Part shown: piece by piece, positions 24,623 to 39,442 of the stretch | How the letters are laid out: every line of letters starts with the position of its first letter | How positions within the stretch are numbered: the first letter of the stretch is position 1 | From: Deinococcales bacterium | GTDB taxonomy: Bacteria; Deinococcota; Deinococci; Deinococcales; JAAFIG01 | Direction: 5' to 3' | Length of the DNA stretch: 64,000 nt | NCBI GenBank assembly: GCA_031414595.1 | Contig: JANNVX010000067.1 | Location: 23,102 to 87,101, forward strand | Notes under the pieces: generated by a model | What the model was told of the DNA's origin: nothing | Seen by the model: the letters and a program-made list of their open reading frames with translations, nothing else | Database searches by the model: none | Program-made: the position numbers and the translations under genes

Positions 24623-25007
24623 GTCTGTTTTGATTGATTCACATGTGCTGCTGTGGTTCAATAATAAACCAGACGAACTCAGCCCTCGAGTTGTGACCTT
24701 GTTGCGTGACCCAAGCACAATTGTTTTTGTTTCGAGCATGACAGCCCATGAATTGGCGGTTAAGTATGCGAACGGTAAGTTACCAGAAGCAAGTGCTTTG
24801 GTGAATGATTTTCTGGGAATTTTAAGTCGCTACAATTTTCATGAATTGCCGTATTCGATTAGCGATGCCTTATGCGCCGCAAAACTTGAACCGTCCCACA
24901 AAGACCCTTTTGATCGGGCTTTAAGCGCTCAGGCTTTAGAGCGAAATTATGCTTTGGTCAGCATAGACCAGATGCTTGACCAATTTGGAGTGCGTCGCAT
25001 CTGGTGA
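24615..25007 (+). CDS. vapC: VapC/PIN-domain toxin
   Basis: LIDSHVLLW, HKDPFDR, LVSID; overlaps the antitoxin stop. Confidence 0.9.
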   Translation: MAESVLIDSHVLLWFNNKPDELSPRVVTLLRDPSTIVFVSSMTAHELAVKYANGKLPEASALVNDFLGILSRYNFHELPYSISDALCAAKLEPSHKDPFDRALSAQALERNYALVSIDQMLDQFGVRRIW

Positions 25008-25067
25008 ACCAAAAACTGTATTCAGGCGTGTTGTGTCTAAATACCAAAAAACGTCAGACTAGATAGC

Positions 25068-25991
25068 ATGAGTCAAGGACTAAAAGTAGCTGTTACTGGC
25101 GCGACTGGTTATGTTGGGCATCACGTATTGCGCGAACTGCTCGAGCGTGGGCATAGCGTCACGGCACTCTCGAGAAGCGGCGCAAAATCCAGCACCGCCA
25201 GTGGAAAATCCCTAGCCACTTTTGAGAATGTCAAATACATCGGTGGCGATGTCTCGACGGCTCGTAACCTCGACACAGCCTTTGCTGGGGCGGATGTGGT
25301 GATTCATTTGGTTGGGATTATTAGCGAACATAAAGACCAGACTTTCCAGAATGTGCATGTCAACGGCACAAAAAACGTTCTCGAGGCAGCAAAAAAAGCG
25401 GGTGTCAAGCGTTACCTGCACATGAGTGCTTTGGGTGCGGCTGCCAACGCTGCCAGTGGCTACTCAAGTAGCAAATTTGCAGCAGAAGAGCTGGTGCGAG
25501 CCAGTGGTCTCGAGTATACGATTTTTCGTCCTAGCCTGATTTTTGGCGAAGGCGACGATTTCTTTGGACGGGTCTTAAAAAACCTTGTCTCGAGTGCGCC
25601 AATCGTGCCACAAATTGGCGATGGCAGTTTTCCATTCAGACCAGTCTGGGTGGGCGACGTGGCAAAATGTTTTGCCCAAGCGCTGGATATTCCCAGTAGT
25701 ATCGGGCAAGTCTTTGATGTGGTGGGCAGTAAAGAATTTAGTTTTAAGGAACTGCTTAATCTCGAGATGAACGCCCTAGGAACTAAAAAACCCCTTGTTC
25801 CAGTACCGATTTTTTTAATGGATATTGGTGTGCCGCTCATGCAGATTTTGGGTTCGTTAGCACCGATTACGACCCATCAGTACGCGATGCTCAAAGCGGG
25901 GAACACCGCCGACCCAGCCCCAGTCAATGCAATGTTTAAGCTCGAGAACCGCAGTTTAGAGACCGAATTACCGAAATTACTCGGGAAGTAA
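25068..25991 (+). CDS. NAD(P)-dependent epimerase/dehydratase, NDUFA9-like
   Basis: VTGATGYVG, HLVGII, HMSALGA, YSSSK, FRPSLIFG. Confidence 0.9.
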   Translation: MSQGLKVAVTGATGYVGHHVLRELLERGHSVTALSRSGAKSSTASGKSLATFENVKYIGGDVSTARNLDTAFAGADVVIHLVGIISEHKDQTFQNVHVNGTKNVLEAAKKAGVKRYLHMSALGAAANAASGYSSSKFAAEELVRASGLEYTIFRPSLIFGEGDDFFGRVLKNLVSSAPIVPQIGDGSFPFRPVWVGDVAKCFAQALDIPSSIGQVFDVVGSKEFSFKELLNLEMNALGTKKPLVPVPIFLMDIGVPLMQILGSLAPITTHQYAMLKAGNTADPAPVNAMFKLENRSLETELPKLLGK

Positions 25992-28900
25992 AATAAATTC
26001 TTGCCATGAACTCGGTAGGCTTTCACCAATTTTTTGGTACTGCTCTTGTTGCACCTGATAAAAACTGTTCAGACTCGAGTCGAGACTGGCTTCAAGGGCT
26101 TGTACGTGCAGTCGCAGGGCGGGTCGCTCGAACGGGTTCATGTTTAATAAAATGCGACTGGCTCGAGTGGCTTCGGTTGGATTAATGGGCAAGCTTTGGG
26201 TGATGGCTCGGGTCAGGGCTTCAGATAGGGCTTCTTGGACACTTGGGTTAAGGCTTATTTCGTCTTCTAAGTACACGCCGCGCCAGATTGTGGTGTCCAG
26301 TGTTTCTAAGAAATCCTCGGCATCGGTACGAACGCCTAAACAATAACCAAGGGTGGTGTGTTGCACAATTTCACTGCCAAGGCTTTTGCGTAAACGATAA
26401 ATCAGCTGCCGAAGAGCCGAAGCCGCTTGTTCTTCGTTTTCTTCGGGGTAGAGTGTGTCTATCATCTCGAGTTGAGTCACCATGACCCTGCCCATCAACC
26501 GCGCCTCGAGCAGTAATGCCAGTAGTTCTCGGGCTTTTTTTAAGCGCTTAGAAATGGTTTGGGTAGCGTAGCGCATTTCGCCTAGCACCTCGAGTTTTTG
26601 AGGGTTGGTTTGAGTGGTTTGTTGTGACTGATTAAACATTTCTGGAAAGTAGCGTTTGGCAACATGAAGGGTAGAAATTGCCTCATCTCCCAATTCTTTT
26701 AATCGTCTAATCCGCAAAGCAGCCGCTTCTTTTTGCGAAAACAAATAATCAAATTCTAAAGCAAATCGTTCAAACGAAATACTTGTATCGGTATCTTCTA
26801 AGGTTTTCAGGGCTTGAATCATTTCTTGTTTTGATTCTTCTATAAAACCAAGTGCAAAACGAGTTCTTGCTCGAACCCACATGCCCTTAGCCAAGTCACT
26901 TGTCAACTCGAGTTTTTGTGCTAATTCTATTTGTTCATCAATTAAAGTTAGTGCCACACTTGGGTCGCCATGAAGGGCTTCAATCCAAGCTATATCGGCT
27001 AAGTTACGGGCAAGTTGTGGTTTGCTGGTCAGTAATCTTTGGTAACGTAGGGCATCTTTGGTGTGTTTGCAAGCTAGAATTTCACCAAACGGCGGACTCC
27101 ATTCCATGTACAAATAAGCCAGTTGTAAATGGACTGAAGTCAAGTACAACCAATCACCTGTGGCATGACTGAGTACATTTTGGGCTTCTAAGAGCAGCAA
27201 TTCAGCCCGTTCAAACTGCCCTAAGTAGGTGATGGAGCTTGCAATTGCCGCTTGTCGAATCGAATAACGAAAAGGGTCAGCTAAATCTCGCATCAGTTGC
27301 AAAGAAGTCTCGAGGTCATGCAAACCTTCTTGTTTTCGCCCTAAGTCCATACGAACCAAACCCCGATTAGAAATCAGCAATTCTTGTTCTATCCATAAGT
27401 TGCTAGATTCTTCAGGATGTTCTTGCAGTAAGTTTAGGGTTTGGGTAAATAAGGCTTCGGCTGCCGTAAATTGTCCTAGGATACGCAATCCAAGGGCTTT
27501 AACATTGAATAAACGCAAACGGGCTGAAAGTTCAACTGGGCGGCTTAAGGTTTGGTCTATCAGTTCAAATGCCTCTACTTGTCTGGACAGTTGAATCAAT
27601 GACATGGCAATACTCCAATTGACTACAGGATTTAATTGTTGTTGCAAATCTGGGTGTTGTTGCCAAATCGAAATAACCTTCTGGTAATCACCACGAATCG
27701 CTAGGAATTGCACAAATGCGGCTAGCCAAGCAACATCAAATTCTTTTTCAGGAGCAGATTTAATCAGTATTTGTTCGGCTTCATCACTGCGTCCTAAGAG
27801 TTGCAAAGCTAAACACCAACCCAAAATAAACTCTGGATTATCTGGCTCGAGACGAAAAGCAATTTCATACAATCGGGCTGATTCGGTTCGGTCAAAGGGC
27901 TTTAAGAGTTCTGCGGCTTGAAACGCCATACTACTTTTTTCTTCTAATGAAGTCAGTTGTACCGCATACGCAAAAGCGCGTCCGGCAAAATGTTTATTTC
28001 CTTTGGCGGCAGTCAGACGTGCCACTTCTAACCATACGTCAAGGGTTTGTTTTGGCTCGAGTTGTGCCGTTTCCACCAGATACTCAATGAGTTCTGGTGC
28101 AAATAAAAGGGTTGGAGCAATTAATTCTCGGGCAATGCTGATTTTTTCTTGCAACCACATTTTTGAACGCAATACTTCGGGATACAGCGGATGCACAAAT
28201 TGATTAGCCGACCAGATACCTGTGCTGAACAATTCAAGATGGTAGACATTTTGCATTTGCTCTGACCAAGTGGCAAAAACATGGTCTCTTAGGTTTGGTT
28301 GATTGGGCAACAAGGCTAAACTAAGCAGCACTTGACGTAAAATACTTGGCGCTGCTATTTGCTGGCTAATATCTTCTAAACGCTCAATAATAATCGCTTC
28401 TAAATCTTTGGGAATTGTCTGTGTTTGTATTGGTTCTTGCCAAAACCATTGTTTCTGCACTTGCCATAAAAAACCTTGGCGCAGGGCGTGTTGAAAAAAC
28501 TCGAGGGTAAAAAGTGGATTACCTAAACTGCGTTTATAAATCCAATTTATTGCATCTGGTGGTAAGGGATAAACGGCGGCGTTATTGAGTAAAGCTGTTG
28601 CTGCTTTTTGGTCAAGGGCTTGCAAAGAAAATTCTTGAAATGCAGCCGATAATGGTAAACGGCTGGTGATAATTAAACCAATGCCCTTACTTTTACCCAG
28701 CATTTGTGCCACTGTAACCCAAAGTGCCAGTTGCGCTGGGTTGGCTTCATGGGCATCCTCGAGATGCACCAGCACAGGCGACAGGGCTGTTAAATAAGTC
28801 AATACGGCTTGGGCTATAGATTTTTCGGATAGATTTTGCTGTTCTTTGAGTTGCTTAAAAACTTGTTCTGCCCAAACAGGCAAAGGTTTTGTGGCTACCG

Positions 28901-29138
28901 GTAATCGGGTGTGTAACCAATGCCAAGGTTCTGAAATTGGAATTAACACTCGAGTACAAGGGATGACACTTAGCACTTGCTCGACGGTGTGGGTTTTGCC
29001 CATGCCCGCATCTGCCACAATTGCAATGGCGGCACTGCGAAAACCCGAGGCGATTCCGTTCAGGCGCTCAAGCAACCGCCCAGCTTCGGCAGTCAGTTGC
29101 TTTTTTGAGGTGGTAGGGCTGCTTAAGTGTGTTGGCAT
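25977..29138 (-). CDS. Large regulator: N-terminal STAND-type ATPase, TPR-like repeats, C-terminal OmpR-type winged helix plus BTAD-like domain
   Basis: ADAGMGKT, HLEDAH, LGNPLF; C-terminal LEVLG..KARELLALLL..LRQLIYRLRK..GYCL; TACCCT -10 box 6 nt before ATG 29138. Confidence 0.8.
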   Translation of the reverse strand: MPTHLSSPTTSKKQLTAEAGRLLERLNGIASGFRSAAIAIVADAGMGKTHTVEQVLSVIPCTRVLIPISEPWHWLHTRLPVATKPLPVWAEQVFKQLKEQQNLSEKSIAQAVLTYLTALSPVLVHLEDAHEANPAQLALWVTVAQMLGKSKGIGLIITSRLPLSAAFQEFSLQALDQKAATALLNNAAVYPLPPDAINWIYKRSLGNPLFTLEFFQHALRQGFLWQVQKQWFWQEPIQTQTIPKDLEAIIIERLEDISQQIAAPSILRQVLLSLALLPNQPNLRDHVFATWSEQMQNVYHLELFSTGIWSANQFVHPLYPEVLRSKMWLQEKISIARELIAPTLLFAPELIEYLVETAQLEPKQTLDVWLEVARLTAAKGNKHFAGRAFAYAVQLTSLEEKSSMAFQAAELLKPFDRTESARLYEIAFRLEPDNPEFILGWCLALQLLGRSDEAEQILIKSAPEKEFDVAWLAAFVQFLAIRGDYQKVISIWQQHPDLQQQLNPVVNWSIAMSLIQLSRQVEAFELIDQTLSRPVELSARLRLFNVKALGLRILGQFTAAEALFTQTLNLLQEHPEESSNLWIEQELLISNRGLVRMDLGRKQEGLHDLETSLQLMRDLADPFRYSIRQAAIASSITYLGQFERAELLLLEAQNVLSHATGDWLYLTSVHLQLAYLYMEWSPPFGEILACKHTKDALRYQRLLTSKPQLARNLADIAWIEALHGDPSVALTLIDEQIELAQKLELTSDLAKGMWVRARTRFALGFIEESKQEMIQALKTLEDTDTSISFERFALEFDYLFSQKEAAALRIRRLKELGDEAISTLHVAKRYFPEMFNQSQQTTQTNPQKLEVLGEMRYATQTISKRLKKARELLALLLEARLMGRVMVTQLEMIDTLYPEENEEQAASALRQLIYRLRKSLGSEIVQHTTLGYCLGVRTDAEDFLETLDTTIWRGVYLEDEISLNPSVQEALSEALTRAITQSLPINPTEATRASRILLNMNPFERPALRLHVQALEASLDSSLNSFYQVQQEQYQKIGESLPSSWQEFILLPE

Positions 29139-29180
29139 GTTCACAGGGTACTCCAAATTACATTTTGGGATTTTCTCGAG

Positions 29181-29218
29181 TCGGTCTCGGAGTGCAAAAT
29201 TTTGCACTCCGAGACCGA
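29181..29218. repeat. Perfect 38-bp palindrome after the 726-aa lipoprotein gene
   Basis: tcggtctcggagtgcaaaa|ttttgcactccgagaccga. Confidence 0.9.
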
Positions 29219-29227
29219 TAAGCCAAA

Positions 29228-31408
29228 TTACGGTTTGAACAGAGCCACAAACGAAGTGGTGTTATTTAGTGCAAAGCCATTGCCAAACGCCATTGCACTG
29301 CTGTCTGGTAAGCCAACCACACCCGTAAAAATTGAGTCAAAGCTGAGGCTGTTACTTGGATTGGTATAACCGAGTAACACTTTACCGCCCACGCCAAAGC
29401 TGCTGTCTAAACTGCCATCTTGGTTTAAGCGCACGGCTGCGAAGTCGTTGGTGTTGGCTGCACCGACCATCATAATTTTGCCATTGGCAAGCACAGTAAT
29501 GGCTCGAGGAACGTGCAGGTTGGCATTAAAGGTCACATCTATGCGCCCATCGGTATCAAAACTGGTGTCGAGGCTGCCAGTATCGGTTAGACGAACCACA
29601 CTGTACAATTCGGTGGTGACATCACGAATCAGCATTAACAGTCTGCCTTGAGCGTCCAGAGTAACGCGGCTACGGCTATTAATCGAACTTAAATTCAGAA
29701 CAGCATTGTTGATTGCTTGGCTTTGATAAGCTGCGTCTACTGCGCCAGTTGGGAGAATACGATTCACAGTGATGGTTGAACTGGCTCCTGAATCGGAGAT
29801 GACAAGGAAGCGTCCTTGGGAATCGGTGAAAGCGATAGCTGTTTCATTTGAAAACAGACCAGGAATCGCAATTGTTTTGCGTCCGTCACCATCAAAATCA
29901 GGGTCTAAGTTGCCACCGGGAGTTAAGCGAATCAATTCGTTTTGGGTGATAAATAAGAAACGACCTAAGTCAACTTGGGCAAAACTGAGCAGATCAGATC
30001 CAATGTTGGATGCAAACAGTTGGGTTGCACCATTTGTACCGAAACTCGAGTCCAAAGAACCATTTGGGTTCAAACGGGTAATTGCTGTATCACTAAGGAG
30101 CAAAATTTTATTGTCGGCTTGGAGTACAAATTGCACTGGAGTGACAAAACCCAGTCCAGCAGGAGGGTTAAAGGTGCTATCAAGCGTGGCATCGGCATTA
30201 AGCCTTGCAATCCCCAACGCTCCTACCGTAACCAGTATTTTCCCATCTGGTTGCCGAAGACTAATCCGACCATTGATGCTCGGTGCTGTCTTAAATCCTG
30301 CCAATGGCAAATTGCTAAAACTCGAGTCTAGGGCGTTACCGCCAATGTTTGTGGCTTTGGGTTGCTCGAACCGACTCAGTACGTTGGTGCTGACCAAAAT
30401 GGTTTGTATAATCCCGCCGCCTGTACCTTTAATTGTAAAGTTTTGAGGTCCAGAAGGGGTGTTCAAACCAGCCACCATTGACATATTGGTATTTGTACCG
30501 TTCTCGACTCGCATATCTTGTGGCACACTTTGGGCGCTAATTACCACAGGCGCAGTAAATCCAGCTTTGCGTTCGACATTAACGGTAAAATTGCTGCGGA
30601 CTTCTTGCAGAATTGGGTCTTCGATAACGGTGGTGCTGAGCTTAAAGCCTTGGGTCGTGACAGGCAAAACCGTAAGTTGCACCACGGTACTTCTGGTCAG
30701 GTTATTGGCGACACCAACCATTCTCATGGCATAGACTCCGGGCAGGGTGTTGTTGGCAAGGCTTAATGTCACCAATGAGGTGTTCTGATTGGGTGGATTG
30801 ACCGTTGGGACTGGATTTTTATTAAAAACCGCACTGACCCCAAGCGGTAAATTCTCGAGGGTAAGCTGGACATTGCCGCTAAATGTGGGGTCTAGTTCTT
30901 TAACGTTAATGCCAAATTTGGCGGTAAAACCGGGTTCGGCACTAAACACATTGGGGGTTGCGGTCAGGGTGTAGACCGAACCTGTTATAGCTGGAACAAC
31001 GACATTGATATTGGTACTGACGGTGATGGTTGCGGCTTGGGGGTTTAGGCTTTTTCCGGGTATGCCATCTATCGCAACACCAAGCACTTTTAAGGGGTAT
31101 GTACCGGGAGCAACATTTTTACCGATTTTCAGGCGCACACCACAATCGCCGTTGCTCGAGTCGCGGGTCCATTCTTGTTCAAAACCAGCCGGTAAATTCT
31201 CGAAGGTCATTTGTACAAGGTTGCTAAAGCCAGCCTCACGCTCGAGCGCCACAAAACTGGTGGCATCACCACCAATTGGAATCTCGAGGCTTATTTCGGC
31301 GGGTTTGAGCTTAAAACTTGGAATAACAACAGGTGGTGGCGCAGTGTTACACGCCATGATGGTCATACCTAAAGCGAGGAGCAGACCGATTGTTTTGCTG
31401 TGTTTCAT
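29228..31408 (-). CDS. Surface lipoprotein with Ig-like domains and delta-60-type beta-propeller repeats
   Basis: Lipobox IMAC; repeated QPDGKIL..RLN.DGSLD.SFG; AAGGAG SD. Confidence 0.85.
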   Translation of the reverse strand: MKHSKTIGLLLALGMTIMACNTAPPPVVIPSFKLKPAEISLEIPIGGDATSFVALEREAGFSNLVQMTFENLPAGFEQEWTRDSSNGDCGVRLKIGKNVAPGTYPLKVLGVAIDGIPGKSLNPQAATITVSTNINVVVPAITGSVYTLTATPNVFSAEPGFTAKFGINVKELDPTFSGNVQLTLENLPLGVSAVFNKNPVPTVNPPNQNTSLVTLSLANNTLPGVYAMRMVGVANNLTRSTVVQLTVLPVTTQGFKLSTTVIEDPILQEVRSNFTVNVERKAGFTAPVVISAQSVPQDMRVENGTNTNMSMVAGLNTPSGPQNFTIKGTGGGIIQTILVSTNVLSRFEQPKATNIGGNALDSSFSNLPLAGFKTAPSINGRISLRQPDGKILVTVGALGIARLNADATLDSTFNPPAGLGFVTPVQFVLQADNKILLLSDTAITRLNPNGSLDSSFGTNGATQLFASNIGSDLLSFAQVDLGRFLFITQNELIRLTPGGNLDPDFDGDGRKTIAIPGLFSNETAIAFTDSQGRFLVISDSGASSTITVNRILPTGAVDAAYQSQAINNAVLNLSSINSRSRVTLDAQGRLLMLIRDVTTELYSVVRLTDTGSLDTSFDTDGRIDVTFNANLHVPRAITVLANGKIMMVGAANTNDFAAVRLNQDGSLDSSFGVGGKVLLGYTNPSNSLSFDSIFTGVVGLPDSSAMAFGNGFALNNTTSFVALFKP

Positions 31409-31494
31409 AATTTTCTCCTTATTGCTAAAAACGCGAGGGTTTAAGAACGAAGTACCTGTTTTGTATCCGAACCTCCTGTGTAACGAACTTCTAA

Positions 31495-31527
31495 AGGCTA
31501 AATGGACTGTGGTAACGAGGCTGTAAC
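31495..31527 (-). promoter_or_regulatory. GTTAC-N6-GTTAC box plus -10 (TAGCCT)
   Basis: gttacagcctcgttac-11 nt-tagcct on the minus strand. Confidence 0.75.
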
Positions 31528-31534
31528 ATCAAAA

Positions 31535-32314
31535 CTAGAATGGGAAACTTTTAGGGTCTTTTGGATTGACAATTTTGAGAACCAACCCCAAATCAGTCAT
31601 TGTCTTTTTGTCCTCGAGCCGAGGTGCTTTTTGTACCCCCACTTGGTTAATCAGGGCAGCTTGCTGCTTGCCGTTGGGTAGTACAATCCAACCAGCCACG
31701 GCTTTTTTTGCACTCTTGCTTTCGGCTCGGTAAAAACCAGCTTGGTCTCGAGCCAATGGAACAGCAAAGGCATACGTTCCACTTGGTAATTCAAGGCTGC
31801 CGAGTGCGTTTTGCAAATTTATTTTGGCAATTAGCCGCGCTCCGTTTTTAGACTGCAACTCGAGTGAATTGTCTAAACCGAGTGCGCCTTTGAACCATTC
31901 AGCAGTCTTTTGCCCATCACAGATGTATGCCAGTACACGCTGCTGTTGCAAGGCAATGGCAATAAAAACTGGTGATTGTGGAATTTTTCCAACATAGACT
32001 GCCTCGAGTTGGGGTGAGGCTGGCTTGAACCACAACACGGCTGCAATCAATAAAACCGCCAAAAGGCTAAAGACACGTACATCTAATTTTTTCTGGACTG
32101 GCGTTTTGGTGATTGGTTGTGGCTCGAGTGGCAGACCGCATTGGGCGCAATTTCGGGCATAGGGCGACATGATTGGCGCTTGGCAGACTTGGCACTGCTC
32201 GAGCATTTCTGTGCCATCGTTAATACAATATCTTTCCCCGCTTTCTATCGGTACGGCTCGAGCGCAGCGCGGACAGATGCGGTATTGGGGCTGGCTGGTC
32301 ACGAGTTGGCTCAT
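31535..32314 (-). CDS. Double zinc-ribbon membrane protein
   Basis: CPRC, CIND, CQVC, CAQC, one TM helix, extracytoplasmic domain; leaderless ATG 32314. Confidence 0.8.
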   Translation of the reverse strand: MSQLVTSQPQYRICPRCARAVPIESGERYCINDGTEMLEQCQVCQAPIMSPYARNCAQCGLPLEPQPITKTPVQKKLDVRVFSLLAVLLIAAVLWFKPASPQLEAVYVGKIPQSPVFIAIALQQQRVLAYICDGQKTAEWFKGALGLDNSLELQSKNGARLIAKINLQNALGSLELPSGTYAFAVPLARDQAGFYRAESKSAKKAVAGWIVLPNGKQQAALINQVGVQKAPRLEDKKTMTDLGLVLKIVNPKDPKSFPF

Positions 32315-32321
32315 GGGGTTT

Positions 32322-32354
32322 AGGTTACGGGCAGGGTGGTAACGAGCCTGTAAC
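32322..32354 (-). promoter_or_regulatory. GTTAC-N6-GTTAC box plus -10 (TAACCT)
   Basis: gttacaggctcgttac-11 nt-taacct-7 nt-ATG. Confidence 0.78.
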
Positions 32355-32390
32355 GTCTTTGTTTTTGATTTGTGGCTTAGAATTCTCGGT

Positions 32391-35348
32391 GTGTCCGAAT
32401 CCGTAGAAACCTTAAAGCAGTGCTTACAAGATTTGCCTTTGGGAAATCCCAGTTGTGCTTTGGCGTTGACAGCCGAAGCTGGCGCAGGCAAGTCTTTTGC
32501 GGTGGCAGCCTTAATGCGTGAGTTACCGTATGGTTCAATGGTTGTCCATGCCGAAATTAGCCTTAGAGATTTACCAAAGATGCTGCCTTCTCGAGCAACA
32601 CAAAAAATACCCGTACCAGATGGCGTGGTGACATCGTTGCTGAATCACTTAAATCTGCTGAGTCCGTTTGTTTTATGGGTCGAAGATTTTCATCAAGCCA
32701 GTCCCGAACAGCAACAAATCTGGTTGGCACTCTCGAGCGCGATTATTCAAACCAAAGGGCTGGCATTGTTATTTACAACAAGGGTGGCAATGACTGCGCC
32801 TGTACAGACCTTTTTTCTCGAGCCACTTTCACCGATTCAATTAAAGTCTTTACTGGAAACCGAAGCAGGCTCGATTATCCCCGAAGCCGCGATTATCTGG
32901 ATTGAAAAGCAAACCCAAGGCAATCCGCTTTTTTCCTTGGAGTATTTTAAGTGGTTAGCACGGCTGGGTTTTTTACGCAGTGATGGTCAATTTTGGCGTT
33001 GGCGTGAACCAGAGCATCGGGTTTTGCCATCAAAGTTAGACGCGCTGATAGAACAAGCCCTGATGCCCGCTTTGGTTTCTGAGCAGCAGGCGCATGTCTT
33101 GCTGGCGGCGGCATTGCTGGGTTCAAAAGTGGATTTATCGGTTTTGTCGCAAGTCACACAAAAAAGCCAAACCGAACTTAAAGAAATTTTTTTGAGACTC
33201 GAGCGATTTGGGGTTTTTAGACGTGGACAATTTGCCCATTCTCTGTACAAAGAGGTACTGCTGAACAATCCAAACATCAAAAATCGTGAATTGATAATAA
33301 AGCAAGTGCTGACTTTTTTAGCCAAGCATAATCCAATAGAAGCCACCCAAATGATGCGCTATGCCAAGTTAAACCCGACCGAACAAGGCTATTATTTTGA
33401 ACAAGCCATTACCTTTGCCCTCAACTTGCCAGACCCTGTGTTAGCGGCTCGGTTGCGCCGCAAAAGCATCGAATTTGTGGATCGTTTAGCCCAAGTTCCC
33501 TTGTTGCTCGAGTCAGCCTTGTGGTTGCAACCGTATCAGCTTTCCGAAGCCTTAGAGATCACCGATTTACTGTTATCACTCGAGCCGCTCAACACGGCTA
33601 ATTTGCGTCTGCGGGTGATTTTATTGGCAAAACTAGGGCGCACAACCGAGGCACAGGGGATGCTACACAGCTTGCCTTTGAAGGGGCTTAACGACTTAAT
33701 AGAACTCGAGGTTCTGGTGTTGTACCGAGGCTGCCAGTATACAAAACTGCTTGAACTCTGGCGGGTTGGCTTAGCTGCACAAGTTATTTTGCCCGCACCT
33801 TTGGCTCGAGCCGTGGCAATTGCGTTACTTTATGATTCAGAATTTGAAAAAGCCCAGCAAATTATGAGCAGAACCTCGAGCCTAACAGGTTTTGACCGAT
33901 TGGACATCTTGTTTGCCGAATTGTATCTTCCATTTACAAAGCATGACTTTGTAACCACAATCAGGGCTTGCACCGATTTTTTAGGGCAACTCGAGCCGTA
34001 CCGCAATGCCACCTTTGAATGGATTGACTTGTTGTGCGGCACATTGCATTTACGAGCTTTGGCGTACAGCGCCCTTGGTCAACCGCTCGCTGCAATTGCG
34101 GACACCACAAAAAATTTGGGCTACCTTAAACAACTTGGTCTTTTGGTTATCTATGCCCAAAGAAAGGCAGAATTGGCGTTGTACCAACTCGAGGCTGGCG
34201 AAAGCGGTTTGGCAGCCACCAACTTATTTGAAGCCAGTGAAACTTTGGATTACTCGAGCGAGCCAGTCCAGAATTGCTTTTATCATCAAACTCGAGCCAT
34301 CTATTACTTGGGCTTAGAAGATCAAAAAGCCTTGCAGATTGCCCGTTTAGCACTTCGTCATGCCCAAGAAACCGAAGAACCAAATCACATCAATCAGGCA
34401 AAACAGACCTTGGCACTGATTGAAGCCAGCCTTGGCTCTGGCGCAAAAGCCTTGGATTTAGTCTCCCAACTCGAGCCGCCACCAAGACTGACCAAAGCCA
34501 TTGCTTTGAAGCGCTTAGGGCAACCTACCGAGGCAATAGAACTACTCGAGCAAGCAGGCAACGAACCGACTGGACGTATGCAGCTTGAATTGGCTCATCT
34601 TAAAAATGACTTTGCTTTTGCCCAGAAACTCTTATTGCAATTTAATCAAAACCACCAAGGGCAACTGATTAAACTGCACCAAAAATACTTTCCTCATTCC
34701 AGCCGCCCTAAAAAACCTGCGCTGCGCGTACTGGGCGATATTTACTGGCACGATGCGCCCTTGGGTGAACGTGGACGCAAAGCCCTAGAATTATTGGTCT
34801 ACTTACTCGAGGCTCGGGTAGAAAAACAGCCAGTCGTGACTTTAGAAGAATTATTCAGGGTGCTTTATCCAAATCATCAGCCCGCCGAAGCCAAAGCCGC
34901 CCTAAAACAATTGGTTTACCGAATGCGGAGTTTTCTGGGTGCAGAAACGATTTTGCACCTTGGTGATGGCTATGCTTTAGGTGCGTTTGAAACTGACCTC
35001 GAGCTATTTTTAGAACATCCACAACCCGAATTACTTTTAGGCAATTACATCAATGACCTTGGAACAGACCACCCCTCGAGCTTGCGCCAAGTTTTAACAG
35101 AAAAAATCCAGACCTTACTATCCGAAATGATGCAGCACAACCACCCTGAAACAGTCCGAATTGCCCGAATTTTACTCGAGATGAACAGCCCAGACCAAAA
35201 AAATCTAACCCTGATTCTTAAAGCTGTTCAACACGCCAAAGACCCTGTAGCAGCGATTCAAATTTATGCCCATGCCAAACAAAAACTCGAGGAAATGGGC
35301 GAGGATTTACCCGACTCTTGGCAAAAATACTTACAAGCCCAAGGCTAA
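32391..35348 (+). CDS. Second STAND-type ATPase/TPR/C-terminal winged helix-BTAD regulator (paralogue of 25977-29138)
   Basis: AEAGAGKS, WVEDFH, QGNPLF, LKQLVYRMR..GDGYAL; TAGAAT 7 nt before GTG 32391. Confidence 0.8.
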   Translation: MSESVETLKQCLQDLPLGNPSCALALTAEAGAGKSFAVAALMRELPYGSMVVHAEISLRDLPKMLPSRATQKIPVPDGVVTSLLNHLNLLSPFVLWVEDFHQASPEQQQIWLALSSAIIQTKGLALLFTTRVAMTAPVQTFFLEPLSPIQLKSLLETEAGSIIPEAAIIWIEKQTQGNPLFSLEYFKWLARLGFLRSDGQFWRWREPEHRVLPSKLDALIEQALMPALVSEQQAHVLLAAALLGSKVDLSVLSQVTQKSQTELKEIFLRLERFGVFRRGQFAHSLYKEVLLNNPNIKNRELIIKQVLTFLAKHNPIEATQMMRYAKLNPTEQGYYFEQAITFALNLPDPVLAARLRRKSIEFVDRLAQVPLLLESALWLQPYQLSEALEITDLLLSLEPLNTANLRLRVILLAKLGRTTEAQGMLHSLPLKGLNDLIELEVLVLYRGCQYTKLLELWRVGLAAQVILPAPLARAVAIALLYDSEFEKAQQIMSRTSSLTGFDRLDILFAELYLPFTKHDFVTTIRACTDFLGQLEPYRNATFEWIDLLCGTLHLRALAYSALGQPLAAIADTTKNLGYLKQLGLLVIYAQRKAELALYQLEAGESGLAATNLFEASETLDYSSEPVQNCFYHQTRAIYYLGLEDQKALQIARLALRHAQETEEPNHINQAKQTLALIEASLGSGAKALDLVSQLEPPPRLTKAIALKRLGQPTEAIELLEQAGNEPTGRMQLELAHLKNDFAFAQKLLLQFNQNHQGQLIKLHQKYFPHSSRPKKPALRVLGDIYWHDAPLGERGRKALELLVYLLEARVEKQPVVTLEELFRVLYPNHQPAEAKAALKQLVYRMRSFLGAETILHLGDGYALGAFETDLELFLEHPQPELLLGNYINDLGTDHPSSLRQVLTEKIQTLLSEMMQHNHPETVRIARILLEMNSPDQKNLTLILKAVQHAKDPVAAIQIYAHAKQKLEEMGEDLPDSWQKYLQAQG

Positions 35349-35350
35349 AC

Positions 35351-35383
35351 GTTACAGCCTCGTTACCAGTCCTAGCGCAAGCT
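35351..35383 (+). promoter_or_regulatory. GTTAC-N6-GTTAC box plus -10-like hexamer (CAAGCT)
   Basis: gttacagcctcgttacc identical over 17 bp to the 31511-31527 box. Confidence 0.75.
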
Positions 35384-35407
35384 GTTGGAGAAAGGAAAGG
35401 AGCGAGT

Positions 35408-35536
35408 ATGAAAAAACGGTTTTGGCTTCTGGCATTGCTGGTTGCAGCACTAATCACCGCTTGTCCAAGTCCTCCACCAGCCGTGGCTGATGGCACTTGG
35501 GGAGAATCAAATTGGGGACAGGCTAACTGGAGGTAA
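35408..35536 (+). CDS. 42-aa lipopeptide with WGxxxWGxxxW tail
   Basis: AAGGAG SD; MKKRFWLLALLVAALITAC lipobox; stop 2 nt before the next ATG. Confidence 0.75.
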   Translation: MKKRFWLLALLVAALITACPSPPPAVADGTWGESNWGQANWR

Positions 35537-35538
35537 TT

Positions 35539-36432
35539 ATGAAAAACATTGTAAAGAACTGGGCAATTGGATTTGGGATAGGAATTTCTGGACTTGGCGT
35601 AGCTGCCGTGACACTGCCACACACTTTTTTACCAGGAACACCGATTAAATCGGCGGACATGAACGCCCAATTTTTAGAAATCAGCAAAGCCATTAACAGC
35701 CTCGAGACCCAACTCAATACAGTCAAAGGTTCGGTTACGACCCTCGAGACAGGTAAGCAAAAACGAGTTACTGGAACGTGTACCATCGGCTCGAGTATCC
35801 GCACCATAGATGCCGAAGGTAATGTCGAATGCGAACTGGACGATATTGGCGGCAATGGCGGTAGTTTCTCGGCAGGCGCGGGTTTGAATTTTACAAATAA
35901 TGTTTTTTCGGTAGCCGATGCTGGAATTACCACTTCTAAATTAGCCGACAGTAGTGTCAATGCCGCTAAAATTGCCGATGAACCAGCCGTTGCCCAAAGC
36001 ATAGACACCGATGGTCACGGCACAATGGCACAAGGGCAAATTATTATTCTCGAGCAAGTCACGGTTCAAGCTCCAGCCAATGGTTTTGTACTGGTGATTG
36101 GTTCAACCCAAGTCGGTATTGTTGCCACCACCAATTCATTCCCAGCCGCCGCTTTTGGAGTTTCTAAATCACCAACCAGCATGGATAACGAACAAGTAAA
36201 GTTTGTATCTGCCCCACCAGTCGCTGCCAATGCCAACAATAATTCGGTTTTCCAAACGGTCTCGAATCAAAAAATCTTTGCGGTCAATGCAGGGGCAAAC
36301 ACCTTTTATTTACTAGGAAGCCGTCAAGTGAGTACCCCTGTCAGCAGTAAAAAAGAAACTTTGTCGGCTGTTTTTATCCCCTCGAGTATGGGAACAGTTG
36401 AAGAAATTGACCTCGGCACGCCACCGATTTAA
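35539..36432 (+). CDS. Secreted fibre-like protein
   Basis: Signal-like N-terminus, LPHTFLPGTPIKSADMNAQF, coiled coil, ITTSKLADSSVNAAKIAD repeats, beta-rich head. Confidence 0.7.
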   Translation: MKNIVKNWAIGFGIGISGLGVAAVTLPHTFLPGTPIKSADMNAQFLEISKAINSLETQLNTVKGSVTTLETGKQKRVTGTCTIGSSIRTIDAEGNVECELDDIGGNGGSFSAGAGLNFTNNVFSVADAGITTSKLADSSVNAAKIADEPAVAQSIDTDGHGTMAQGQIIILEQVTVQAPANGFVLVIGSTQVGIVATTNSFPAAAFGVSKSPTSMDNEQVKFVSAPPVAANANNNSVFQTVSNQKIFAVNAGANTFYLLGSRQVSTPVSSKKETLSAVFIPSSMGTVEEIDLGTPPI

Positions 36433-36478
36433 GTATCTCACACCTCCATTTTAGAATCTTCAAAATGCGGCAATTCTG

Positions 36479-36517
36479 TTCTTGCTTATAAGATAGCACC
36501 TCACGGGCTATTCGCGC
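36479..36517 (-). mobile_element. 39-bp GCG...CAAGAA micro-element copy
   Basis: gcgcgaatagcccgtgaggtgctatcttataagcaagaa, 35/39 identical to 1387-1425; lies between 12-bp inverted repeats 36433-36444 and 36525-36536. Confidence 0.75.
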
Positions 36518-36647
36518 TCATTTCGGTGTGAGATACGCCTAAATTGCCTCGGTATAAAACGACTCGAGCAACCCCAGTTTTTTCTCATGGGTATGAACCC
36601 ACGCCATCAGTTCAATATAATCCAACAGCAACGATAGGAGGTACATT

Positions 36648-37409
36648 ATGAAACGGTACTTATTCCCACTTGGCTTCTTGCTGATAATTGGTTGTGCGCC
36701 CGCCAACAGCACCACTAGCGCCCCAACAGTGATAAAAGGTTCAGGTGACATTACAAGTACCATCGAACAATACCGTCAATTGCTTGGCGGTATAGATAAC
36801 AACGGAGAACCAGGCTCGAGAAGCACAGGATACCGAGAAATAAACTGGGATAGCTTGCCCAACGAACTGTCAGCTCCCAATTTTTACACCCCAGATTTCT
36901 TTAATGCCTCCACAGCCCCTCGAGCCAGAGGCGCAGTTCTCAGTACCCCAGGAAAAGGTTTAATGGTTAGCGCCAGCAATAACAATCCGACTGGCACATT
37001 GCCAAGATTTGGAAACATCAACCCAACCTATGTCAATAGTTTTAAGACCTTTAGCAGCGAACGCTTATTTTCACCAATTGGTAGTAACATTGCCGAAATT
37101 CGTTTTTATGTACCAGGAACAAATACCCCAGCCGCCGTGCAAGGTTTTGGGGCGGTTTACACTGATGTGGACACTGACCATACTGCCTTTGAGTATTTTG
37201 ATATTAAAGGTAATCTACTCGGTTCTTTTGCAACGCCAATTGCCGACAATGGACTATCGTTTCTAGGTGTAGTTTTTAAGCAAGCAATTGTTCATAAAGT
37301 ACGAATTCAGTATGGTACTGCCGCATTAGGAGCGGATGACAGTCTAAGCAATGATGTTGCAGTTATGGATAATTTTGTCTACGGCGAACCAAAAGCCATT
37401 CAGCCATAA
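36648..37409 (+). CDS. Hypothetical lipoprotein
   Basis: Lipobox IIGC; REINWD and VMDNFVYGEP motifs; AGGAGG SD. Confidence 0.75.
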   Translation: MKRYLFPLGFLLIIGCAPANSTTSAPTVIKGSGDITSTIEQYRQLLGGIDNNGEPGSRSTGYREINWDSLPNELSAPNFYTPDFFNASTAPRARGAVLSTPGKGLMVSASNNNPTGTLPRFGNINPTYVNSFKTFSSERLFSPIGSNIAEIRFYVPGTNTPAAVQGFGAVYTDVDTDHTAFEYFDIKGNLLGSFATPIADNGLSFLGVVFKQAIVHKVRIQYGTAALGADDSLSNDVAVMDNFVYGEPKAIQP

Positions 37410-37464
37410 CATGAAGATGTTCCCCTTGAAAATCTGCTCGAGAGGTCTTGGCATTATAATTCAA

Positions 37465-38091
37465 TCAAGCCATCAATGACAAAGAACCCGTCACGGCTGC
37501 CAGAATTTTTTCATGGATTACATCGGCGGTTTGGGTTGCATCCAAAACCAAGAAACGTTCTGGTTCGGCTCTGGCTAACTCGAGAAACCCAGCCCTGACT
37601 TTTTGATGAAACCCCAAATCAGCTTGCTCGAGTCGGTCTGGAGTACCAACTCTAGCAGCCCGTTCTAAGCCCAGTTTCGGCTCGAGGTCAAGCAGTACGG
37701 TTACATGTGGGCGAAGTCCGCCCGTGGCTTCCCAAGTCACTTCACGCAGAAAATCCAGGTTTAAGCCCCGCCCAAAACCTTGATAGGCAAGGCTCGAGTC
37801 AAAGAATCGGTCACAAATCACCACATAATTACCAGCTAAATTTGGCACGATGATGTCTCTACAAAGTTGCGCTCTGGAAGCACTGAACAGTAAAAATTCA
37901 GATAAAGCTGTAATCTCGAGGTCTGGATTGAGCAAAGCCGCCCGCACTGCATCACCCAGAGGTGTTCCACCCGGTTCTCGAGTCAGTAGCACCGCATAAC
38001 CCGCCCGTTCTAAGGCAGCTTTTAAGAGTTTGGTTTGGGTGCTTTTGCCAGCCCCTTCAGGTCCTTCAAATGTAATAAAAACACCGGGCAT
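37465..38091 (-). CDS. tmk: Thymidylate kinase
   Basis: FITFEGPEGAGKSTQ, TREPGG, CDRFFDSSLAYQG. Confidence 0.97.
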   Translation of the reverse strand: MPGVFITFEGPEGAGKSTQTKLLKAALERAGYAVLLTREPGGTPLGDAVRAALLNPDLEITALSEFLLFSASRAQLCRDIIVPNLAGNYVVICDRFFDSSLAYQGFGRGLNLDFLREVTWEATGGLRPHVTVLLDLEPKLGLERAARVGTPDRLEQADLGFHQKVRAGFLELARAEPERFLVLDATQTADVIHEKILAAVTGSLSLMA

Positions 38092-38179
38092 GTTGTCCTT
38101 TTTGTGCAGCGCAAAAAGATACCACACAGGCAAGTGTAACGTTTCGTTTTTGGATAAACCATGTCAGAATGAAAATGTT

Positions 38180-39442
38180 ATGCGCTTTATTTTTTATGTC
38201 CTGATACTTTCTTTGTTGGCTTGCAGCAAAAGCGGTCAAACTGTGGTTTTGCAACCAGCCCCTATTGAGAACACGGCGGTACTCGCCAGTACAGTCACCA
38301 CTAAAGTCGTGACTGTTTCGAGCCAGACTGTACCTGAACCTGTGAAAGCCTCACCTGCGCTGTTTAACGCGGCTGGATGCGCTATACCGCTAACGCCAAC
38401 CCAATTTATTAAACCGCCAGCCGTTCCTAAAGGCATCACTGGTAGAGTTGGTTTATTCGTCGGACGTTTTAGCCGTGGCACAAAAGAATTTACGTTAGAA
38501 CAAGCCACTTGGCAAAATCCCCAAGGGCAATATCCCTTGGCAAGCAATTTCAAAACCAGTGTTTTATTTGAAGTGTTGCGTGGTGTGGACAGTGGCAAAA
38601 TTAAACTCGAGGAGCGTTTTAATGTCACCAAAGGCAACCAGAGTTACGGGCGTTATCCTTATGACAACACCCTACTTTTGAATCTGGGGATGGCAATGAT
38701 TTCATGGTCGGACAACACCGCCACTGATATTTTATTTCGGCGCGTGGGTTTGGACGCACTGCAACCCTCAGCCCAACGCTTAGGGCTTTGTAATACCCGT
38801 TTACTATTACCGACCAAAACATGGTGGACTGCCCAAGCTGGACTTGGCGGGGCGGACTTTCCCAAATATAGTTTGGTGGCTGCCACCAAACGCTTTGCCC
38901 AAGCACCCTATGAGACACAATTGGCACTGGCAGAACGCCTAGACCAAAAAGCCCTAAACACCAATGCCGAAACGCTACGCCGATTCCTTGACCAAGGTTA
39001 CTTTGCTGGGCGCAATGGTGGCGTAGAAACCATGAGTCAAATAGACCGCAACCTGCAAAATGCCAGTACCCCACACGAATGGGCAAGATTTATGTGGAAT
39101 GCTTTTGTGAGTTATGACCTAAGCACCTTTGGTCAAAAAAAGTTTAGAGAAATTATGTCCCACGGCAAGGGACGCAGTTATATCCGTGTACCATTCAAGT
39201 ATTACGGCGGTAAAAGCGGCAACACCGCCAGAATCCTGACCTATTCGGGGTTTCTCGAGACGCTATCTGGGGATAAAGTCATTTATGTCTACATGAACGA
39301 CTCAAGCCAAAATCTAATCACTCGAGATGAAACCAACTTGGCGTTTAATTACATCAATGCGGCGCTTAAAAAAGTCATTCGTCCAAGCGATTTGGTACGT
39401 CCTAAACCCATAAAATTAGAGAAGCCCAAAGCTAAGAAGTAA
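38180..39442 (+). CDS. Class A beta-lactamase-fold serine hydrolase, lipoprotein
   Basis: Lipobox LLAC; SNFK, SDN and KSG motifs. Confidence 0.85.
   Translation: MRFIFYVLILSLLACSKSGQTVVLQPAPIENTAVLASTVTTKVVTVSSQTVPEPVKASPALFNAAGCAIPLTPTQFIKPPAVPKGITGRVGLFVGRFSRGTKEFTLEQATWQNPQGQYPLASNFKTSVLFEVLRGVDSGKIKLEERFNVTKGNQSYGRYPYDNTLLLNLGMAMISWSDNTATDILFRRVGLDALQPSAQRLGLCNTRLLLPTKTWWTAQAGLGGADFPKYSLVAATKRFAQAPYETQLALAERLDQKALNTNAETLRRFLDQGYFAGRNGGVETMSQIDRNLQNASTPHEWARFMWNAFVSYDLSTFGQKKFREIMSHGKGRSYIRVPFKYYGGKSGNTARILTYSGFLETLSGDKVIYVYMNDSSQNLITRDETNLAFNYINAALKKVIRPSDLVRPKPIKLEKPKAKK

Follow-up and report, generated by a model that had tools for sequence, protein, structure and literature searches.

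Two candidate STAND-TPR-SARP regulators, an 11-bp direct-repeat promoter class and a zinc-ribbon companion in a Deinococcales locus

We examined a 64-kb stretch of a Deinococcales genome (contig JANNVX010000067.1 of assembly GCA_031414595.1; hereafter the window, with positions counted over the whole stretch) in which the genes for two ~1000-aa proteins, P0001 and P0002, lie among three transcription units that each begin at a promoter carrying the direct repeat GTTAC-N6-GTTAC. On the evidence of sequence comparison and predicted structure, P0001 and P0002 are probably signal-sensing switches, each built of a STAND ATPase domain (NOD), a TPR middle and a C-terminal SARP domain, that turn on the three local units via the repeats spaced 11 bp apart. 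The computed part comprises the sequences, the folds, the co-location of motif and regulator, the fixed register of the -10 hexamer and, over the family as a whole, a repeat sequence that varies in step with the recognition helix. In the mechanism that we propose, two SARP domains would bind side by side on the repeats (distal RTWAY, proximal CGTTACY) over the -35 region, at about -41 to -20, and the bound domains would recruit or adapt RNA polymerase to a promoter having only a -10 element, as AfsR does at afsS. Activation of unit 1 would produce a beta-propeller lipoprotein, perhaps with read-through into P0001; unit 2 would give the leaderless zinc-ribbon membrane protein P0004; and unit 3 would give a lipopeptide together with P0005, perhaps extending into a 253-aa lipoprotein. 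The elements of this scheme that we infer are the binding, activation rather than repression, the paralogue that acts, and the signal.

GTTAC promoters and their geometry

The motif GTTAC-N6-GTTAC was found three times in the window, against a mean of 0.05 expected, and none of 100 dinucleotide-preserving shuffles reached three sites. The 16-mers are located at 31512-31527 (minus strand), 32339-32354 (minus) and 35351-35366 (plus). With the trailing C included they are the three 17-mers, GTTACAG(C/G)CTCGTTACC, that the initial annotation of this DNA had picked out (31511-31527, minus; 32338-32354, minus; 35351-35367, plus), and its further claim of an 11-nt interval between the second GTTAC and a -10 hexamer was exact in all three sites, where the 17-mer is followed by 10 bases and then by TAGCCT, TAACCT or CAAGCT. 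Promoter 1 (31495-31527, minus) reads GTTAC-AGCCT-CGTTACC, N10, TAGCCT (31500-31495), with an ATG 86 nt downstream behind AAGGAG. Promoter 2 (32322-32354, minus) reads GTTAC-AGGCT-CGTTACC, N10, TAACCT (32327-32322); it is situated inside the 55-76-bp divergent region common to P0004 and P0002, and the ATG of the zinc-ribbon gene (32314) lies 7 nt after its hexamer, again in agreement with the annotation. Promoter 3 (35351-35383, plus) reads GTTAC-AGCCT-CGTTACC, N10, CAAGCT (35378-35383) and begins 3 nt past the P0002 stop codon.

Over the 4.49-Mb assembly the bare 16-mer occurred at 8 sites, which is not above the reversed control of 20; when the search was extended to the full pattern (GTTAC-N5-CGTTAC with the hexamer's A and T, zero mismatches), only the three window sites remained genome-wide, and a degenerate form of it gave 4 matches, 3 of them in the window, versus 2 for the reversed control. 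Origin of the three sites from a duplicated segment or a mobile element was considered and rejected: beyond the 17-mer and hexamer their flanks show no relationship, and the sites are therefore not copies of one segment. Simple sigma-70 and terminator scans of the region did not rise above shuffles, and an Rfam search of positions 25000-38500 returned no family at gathering score.

The register between the repeats and the hexamer is fixed. The hexamer NANNNT stood exactly 11 nt downstream in all 33 GTTAC-N5-CGTTAC sites collected from the window and 20 loci, and when all loci were taken together it was in register at 53 of 59 distinct sites, compared with 0-3 of 59 when the register was shifted by 1-3 nt. 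Nine targets start 6-7 nt after the hexamer, a spacing to be expected if these transcripts are leaderless; leaderless mRNAs are given as the majority in Deinococcus deserti in a passage of PMC4007540. With the leaderless ATG taken as +1, the 22-bp box extends from about -41 to -20 and its centre is at ~-30. Sections of PMC10936776 describe SARP targets as direct repeats spaced by 11 or 22 bp, of which the 3' one is 8 bp away from the -10 element, place the centre of the 22-bp afs box of afsS at -29.5, overlapping a poor -35 element, and report that two SARP protomers side by side offer sigma region 4 an alternative docking surface. The promoters described here have this target architecture (direct repeats 11 bp apart beside the -10 box, overlapping the -35 position), except in the gap to the -10 box, and the 11-bp-period, SARP-like geometry near -35 that had been read from the window is upheld, the box centre being ~-30 versus the -29.5 given for the afs box in that part of PMC10936776.

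The regulators and their association with the promoters

Regulators P0001 (25977-29207, minus; listed open reading frame of 1076 aa) and P0002 (32370-35348, plus; 992 aa from TTG 32370) share 26% identity over 1059 aligned columns, their whole length (E 4e-63). A profile made from 63 C-terminal domains of the family and run against all PDB sequences retrieved the AfsR SARP domain at E 4.2e-12 and EmbR at E 1.7e-5; a second stretch of the hidden Markov model was colinear, and not significant. The AlphaFold2 (AF2) model of the last 230 residues of P0002 had a predicted local distance difference test score (pLDDT) of 93.1, and Foldseek returned six matches to it at E<=0.001, only to AfsR (three chains, from transcription initiation complexes) and EmbR (three chains), with alignments of 243-253 columns that span the whole SARP domains, winged helix plus BTAD. 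The SARP domain thus forms the last ~230 residues of both regulators and is not N-terminal; since positions 19-126 of the NCBIfam AfsR model align to P0001 residues 860-968, the domain order is the reverse of that in AfsR.

The N-terminal 420 residues, modelled by AF2 at pLDDT 93.5, form the STAND NOD, a P-loop nucleotide-binding domain with helical and winged-helix subdomains after it. The best Foldseek matches of this model were PH0952 (7.7e-9; a STAND protein with a TPR sensor), Apaf-1, Avs3, CED-4 and MalT (8BOB_C, E 5.8e-7); the profile search against PDB gave PH0952 at E 6.8e-4; and the Walker A and B residues (G31, G33, K34 and E98, D99, H101) are invariant or nearly so among 62 sequences. 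The NOD matches AAA_16/AAA_22, not NB-ARC. The middle ~400 residues gave matches to TPR_12, TPR_19, TPR_9 and TPR_2, all below cut-offs, and the N-terminal AF2 model is all-helical beyond residue ~300. GerE, the LuxR-type helix-turn-helix (HTH), had no match in the window regulators, the C terminus being the SARP domain. The fold and profile check that the initial annotation had suggested accordingly identified the C-terminal part as SARP (AfsR, EmbR) and the N-terminal part as a STAND NOD, and profiles, AF2 and Foldseek together bear out its description of two ~1000-aa paralogues with a P-loop ATPase, a TPR-like middle and a C-terminal winged helix with a BTAD-like domain, in an order opposite to that of AfsR.

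Each of the 18 other genomes in the taxonomic family to which the window belongs has relatives of P0002, as do some of the order's remaining families; among named proteins and loci the closest belong to uncultured Deinococcota/Deinococcales, and five genomes searched with the C-terminal domain alone had 6 to 12 copies of it each. The sample for the tree and for co-location consisted of 65 full-length regulators with flanks, namely all copies in five genomes plus the best matches elsewhere, and a regulator was scored as motif-adjacent when the full pattern lay within 2.5 kb of it. Eight of the 65 were motif-adjacent (promoter RTWAY-N5-CGTTACY-N10-NANNNT), and all eight belong to one 15-member clade (8/15, versus 0/50 outside it; FastTree, Shimodaira-Hasegawa-like support 98), clade A, which holds both P0001 and P0002. 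The seven clade-A members without an exact site comprise four with very short flanks, two with variant sites having an ATAAC distal half, and one with a site 3.8 kb away. The promoter form GTTAC-N5-CGTTACC adjoins the best P0002 relatives in other genera of the family, and the promoter-regulator pairing was seen in five genera of the family as well as in Meiothermus, Calidithermus and Deinococcus records.

Because part of the clade-A set had been fetched by the motif, a test based upon the regulator alone was added, in which the helix peptide [SA]AL[KRQ]QL[VI]YR[LVM] was scanned over a species-representative genome collection. This gave 23 loci, 13 of them new, and the motif was beside the gene in 7 of the 13 new loci (Meiothermus metagenome-assembled genomes (MAGs), Calidithermus chliarophilus DSM 9957, Deinococcus hohokamensis, D. 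navajonensis and a Deinococcota MAG; 57-69% GC); the new loci without it were from three Trueperaceae MAGs and three further. Co-location of motif and regulator family, the test that the initial annotation had proposed for its regulon, gave a positive result in both the tree sample and the peptide-fetched loci.

One contig of a same-genus genome (L048-L051, ~70 kb) carries an island of three clade-A regulators and no fewer than 25 (G/A)T(T/A)A(C/T)-N5-CGTTACY promoters, most of which precede paralogous ~430-aa immunoglobulin (Ig)-like lipoproteins. The three-promoter locus of the window looks like a minimal version of this island.

The zinc-ribbon companion, repeat-helix covariation and other readings of the repeats

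A double zinc-ribbon domain adjoins regulators of both clades. A tblastn search of all fetched loci with the first 70 residues of P0004 located it in 31 distinct loci, with seven invariant cysteines and 52% mean column identity, and its gene was on the same strand as, and just downstream of, the regulator gene in 20 of the 21 loci where both were mapped. The protein is usually free-standing and ~65-95 residues long; the membrane-anchored fusion was found in 4 of the 31 loci, in the window's subclade only. Deinococcus hohokamensis and D. navajonensis each have a 68-aa zinc-ribbon gene right behind the regulator and a GTTAG-N5-CGTTACC promoter. The zinc-ribbon gene is a family-wide companion of the regulators.

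This gene was used as the anchor for finding the motifs of other clades; a count of 7-mers 10 nt before NANNNT was swamped by CTCGAG. The grammar W5-N6-W5 (at most one mismatch, ending ACC)-N10-NANNNT was present upstream of the zinc-ribbon gene in 22 of 31 loci, whereas control windows of the same size gave 0/28, 0/27, 0/31 and 0/31, and the +200 window, which is immediately downstream and contains additional promoters of this type, gave 5/29. The repeat sequence found in this way goes with the recognition helix of the regulator: GTTAC with ..LKQLVYR[LMV]R; CTGAC with ..LKEL.[RH][GST].R or L[RS]DV.YQLR; xTAAC with ..Q..FQ.R; and CAAAC/GTAAC/GTCAC with ..FK.R. Promoters of the CTGACC class occur at 2.5 per 10 kb in their own loci versus 0.44 elsewhere. 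On the tree the repeat classes reappear in several distinct branches, and the covariation is given without a p-value because the rows are related. It is the strongest in-silico argument that the regulators read the repeats. Around the other paralogues in the window's genome (C18, C15, C38 and C102) the W5-N6-W5-N11-NANNNT grammar gave nothing recurrent, and the zinc-ribbon gene on C18 has a loose xTAAC-type site only.

A number of observations weigh against control of these promoters by P0001 and P0002. Pfam gave weak AAA_16/AAA_22 and TPR signals in the window regulators, Trans_reg_C in P0001 only (E 0.003), all of them below cut-off, and no BTAD match in either protein; it was for this weakness that the domains were tested with family alignments. 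The recognition helices of P0001 (ALRQLIYRLR) and P0002 (ALKQLVYRMR) are near-identical, so the roles of the two are not separable. The phylogeny was obtained by FastTree only, and the density contrast for CGTTACY-N10-NANNNT, with 44 sites in 167 kb of clade-A loci (reversed control 7) versus 6 in 480 kb of clade-B loci (control 6), is inflated by the fetching of L048-L060 and L064-L067 for carrying the motif; the tree result and the helix-peptide loci are free of this bias. There was no site in 7 of the 23 helix-peptide loci (the three Trueperaceae MAGs, second copies in Meiothermus and Calidithermus, L130, and the 1.7-kb L109), and some genomes have the majority of their motif sites on contigs that lack a regulator, only 1 of 7 being adjacent in one genome. 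At the promoters themselves the third -10 box, CAAGCT, is weak, and 10-11 nt separate the proximal repeat from the -10 box, against the 8 bp given in the portion of PMC10936776 that treats SARP targets. A further point of this kind comes from the families that recur as targets elsewhere, among them lipoproteins of the propeller and Ig-like kinds, Rieske proteins and a ~190-aa leaderless LuxR/GerE-type HTH protein; the last is a motif target in 5 genomes (L048:4328-4891, L052:1632-2183, L054:9059-9688, L057 and L065) and could be a second binder of the repeats. As a conserved target it suggests a regulatory cascade.

That LuxR/GerE-type protein, or an OmpR-family response regulator, might then be the protein that reads the repeats as real promoter elements, the STAND-SARP proteins being mere neighbours; its gene stands behind the motif in the 5 genomes, and most motif sites of some genomes are far from any regulator gene. 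We consider this unlikely, since the window locus and a 92%-identical relative keep the three promoters without a LuxR gene, the nearest LuxR homologue in the window's genome is 30-33% identical, on another contig and without a motif upstream, and from clade to clade the repeat changes along with the SARP recognition helix. OmpR/SARP winged helices, in addition, bind to tandem direct repeats that are one helical turn apart, whereas LuxR-type dimers usually bind inverted repeats.

It might also be that the regulators bind the repeats as repressors or occluders of the -35 region, the units being derepressed when the sensor is triggered, and the box does overlap the would-be -35 position. No conserved -35 hexamer was found under the box, however, and the inter-repeat spacer (N5-6), which is nearly constant within one genome, varies between genomes (AGCCT/AGGCT here; AGCAA, CGCCG or TGGCG elsewhere). 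With no -35-like hexamer conserved there the promoters look activator-dependent; the winged helix is paired with BTAD as in AfsR, and the box position of ~-30 equals that in the AfsR activation complex. Repression is thus an improbable account. That the 17-mer and hexamer are the promoter of an alternative (ECF-like) sigma factor, as a fixed two-part element at constant distance from the start would allow, is very hard to credit when the two halves are identical and 11 bp apart, the hexamer is of the housekeeping type TANNNT, the distances to the hexamer, 11 or 22 nt, agree with no -35/-10 spacing, the locus has no sigma gene, and the element changes with the clade of the regulator.

Probable target genes at the locus and relation to known systems

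The proteins encoded behind the three promoters, which we take as the targets of STAND-TPR-SARP activation, are envelope proteins (lipoproteins and a membrane protein), in keeping with the earlier suggestion of surface proteins and not a secondary metabolite cluster. The first is P0003, a 726-aa lipoprotein (29228-31408, minus) having a signal peptide with Cys and a DUF5122 / delta-60 repeat beta-propeller, a homologue of which is behind a GTTAC promoter in another genus (L066). The second is the leaderless P0004 (259 aa; 31535-32314, minus), composed of a cytoplasmic double zinc ribbon (residues ~11-60), one transmembrane helix and an ecto-domain. This ecto-domain (YVG..FIA...LAYVCDG...WF.G) is found as a separate secreted protein in L114:6906-7442 (Calidithermus chliarophilus), L123, L125, L129, L060 and L064, behind its own motif in Calidithermus and L064; P0004 looks like a fusion of two recurrent targets because its ecto-domain stands alone elsewhere.

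The third unit begins with a 42-aa lipoprotein precursor (35408-35536, plus; LITAC lipobox, with a predicted Trp-rich mature peptide of 24 aa), which is conserved only in a 92-94% identical relative, and continues with P0005 (297 aa; 35539-36432, plus), which has an N-terminal transmembrane or signal anchor and no family match. In three loci belonging to other clades (L078, L061 and L090) the gene immediately behind the zinc-ribbon gene encodes a protein with the N-terminal ~130 residues of P0005, so P0005-like genes may be a second recurrent member of the module. Homologues of a 253-aa lipoprotein (36648-37409, plus) directly follow GTTAC promoters of their own in two genomes (L064, L067; 75% identity) and in a third (L060; 36%), and for this reason the lipoprotein probably belongs to the conserved target set. 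The 216-nt gap before it holds no GTTAC motif, and it would therefore be reached by read-through or have a separate promoter. Between P0005 and this gene, positions 36433-36536 are closed by a 12-bp inverted repeat and give a multi-stem fold of -34.1 kcal/mol (z -5.2 versus shuffles), without an Rfam match.

The listed start codons of both regulators call for revision. P0001 probably starts at GTG 29144 (1055 aa; GGAG 6 nt upstream), or at ATG 29138, rather than at the listed GTG 29207, which lies inside a perfect 38-nt palindrome (29181-29218). The palindrome is located between the P0003 stop (29228-29230) and the P0001 start, and has no T-run after it; it may be a terminator-like hairpin separating the P0003 and P0001 units. 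The start of P0002 is probably the leaderless GTG 32391 (985 aa), 7 nt after TAGAAT (32378-32383).

CTCGAG is by far the commonest hexamer of the 4.49-Mb genome. It occurs 23,235 times, or once every ~193 bp, with 355 copies in the window; this is three times more than the next hexamer, and CTCGAG is also frequent in the loci of related genomes. Several other palindromes are near-absent genome-wide (GGCGCC 3, TGCGCA 2, GTGCAC 6, GGGCCC 0). The abundance of CTCGAG looks like that of a highly iterated palindrome combined with restriction avoidance.

To our knowledge nearly all SARP activators described so far come from antibiotic clusters of actinomycetes. In the literature searched, which left subscription journals outside, we found no account of a C-terminal SARP domain or of SARP-type regulators in Deinococcus, Thermus or Meiothermus; the 'SARP' of PMC1274311 is an unrelated eukaryotic domain. 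What is new here for SARP-type activation is the reversed architecture, the phylum, the target class, the conserved zinc-ribbon companion and a readable pattern of specificity. SARP promoter logic would appear to be at work in another phylum, under proteins of reversed domain order, and to control envelope proteins. The analysis yields a promoter grammar, a candidate helix-to-DNA code over dozens of natural paralogues and a conserved small zinc-ribbon partner; it allows regulon prediction for the large 'AAA ATPase/TPR' proteins that otherwise go unannotated in genomes of Deinococcota; and naturally orthogonal activator/promoter pairs could serve as genetic parts. Cultured carriers of the module are Deinococcus hohokamensis, D. 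navajonensis and Calidithermus chliarophilus.

We offer more tentatively, as a reading that we would not yet call probable, that this is a phylum-wide, much-duplicated and undescribed module of Deinococcota, made up of a STAND-TPR-SARP sensor, a private direct-repeat promoter and, as first target, a ~70-aa double zinc-ribbon protein. A few residues of the helix (YR, RG/RS, FQ, FK, YQ) might set the 5-mer, the 6-12 paralogues of one cell might run insulated local regulons, and the highly conserved zinc-ribbon protein, which in the window's subclade has acquired a membrane anchor and an outside domain by fusion, might be their common downstream effector or feedback partner in an AfsS-like role.

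The architecture as such is not new, because proteins of ~1000 aa with AAA_16, TPR and BTAD are annotated in ESM Atlas clusters (Bacillota, Gemmatimonadota, Actinomycetota, Synergistota), having the same domain content and size, and one relative has been annotated as a SARP-family activator by the Joint Genome Institute. No characterised member of that family was found in the literature searched, and in our comparison the zinc-ribbon companion and the GTTAC/CTGAC classes were seen only in Deinococcota loci. EmbR of Mycobacterium tuberculosis (PDB 2FEZ, 2FF4) matches the SARP fold over ~247 columns at a TM-score of 0.54-0.58, but differs in that its SARP domain is N-terminal and is accompanied by an FHA domain, with no ATPase or TPR. 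The MalT/LAL regulators have the same order as the proteins described here, an N-terminal STAND ATPase, a helical-repeat sensor and a C-terminal DNA-binding output; their output is a LuxR-type HTH, whereas here it is a SARP winged helix plus BTAD on direct repeats.

The nearest comparison is with AfsR, the 'large' SARP of Streptomyces coelicolor (PDB 8HVR, 8K60), which is likewise ~1000 aa and has the same SARP (OmpR-type winged helix plus BTAD), STAND NOD and TPR. The order is SARP-NOD(NB-ARC)-TPR in AfsR and NOD-TPR-SARP here, where the NOD matches AAA_16/AAA_22 and folds closest to PH0952, Apaf-1 and MalT. The family described here differs further in belonging to Deinococcota, in a gap to the -10 box of 10-11 nt rather than 8, in having 6-12 copies of the C-terminal domain per genome, and in targets that are envelope lipoproteins and a double zinc-ribbon protein rather than antibiotic pathways. 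The afs box is like the window promoters in having two direct repeats 11 bp apart that overlap -35 beside the -10, with the centre near -30. The gene afsS adjoins afsR and encodes a 63-aa protein; the prime target here is likewise a small gene next to the regulator gene.

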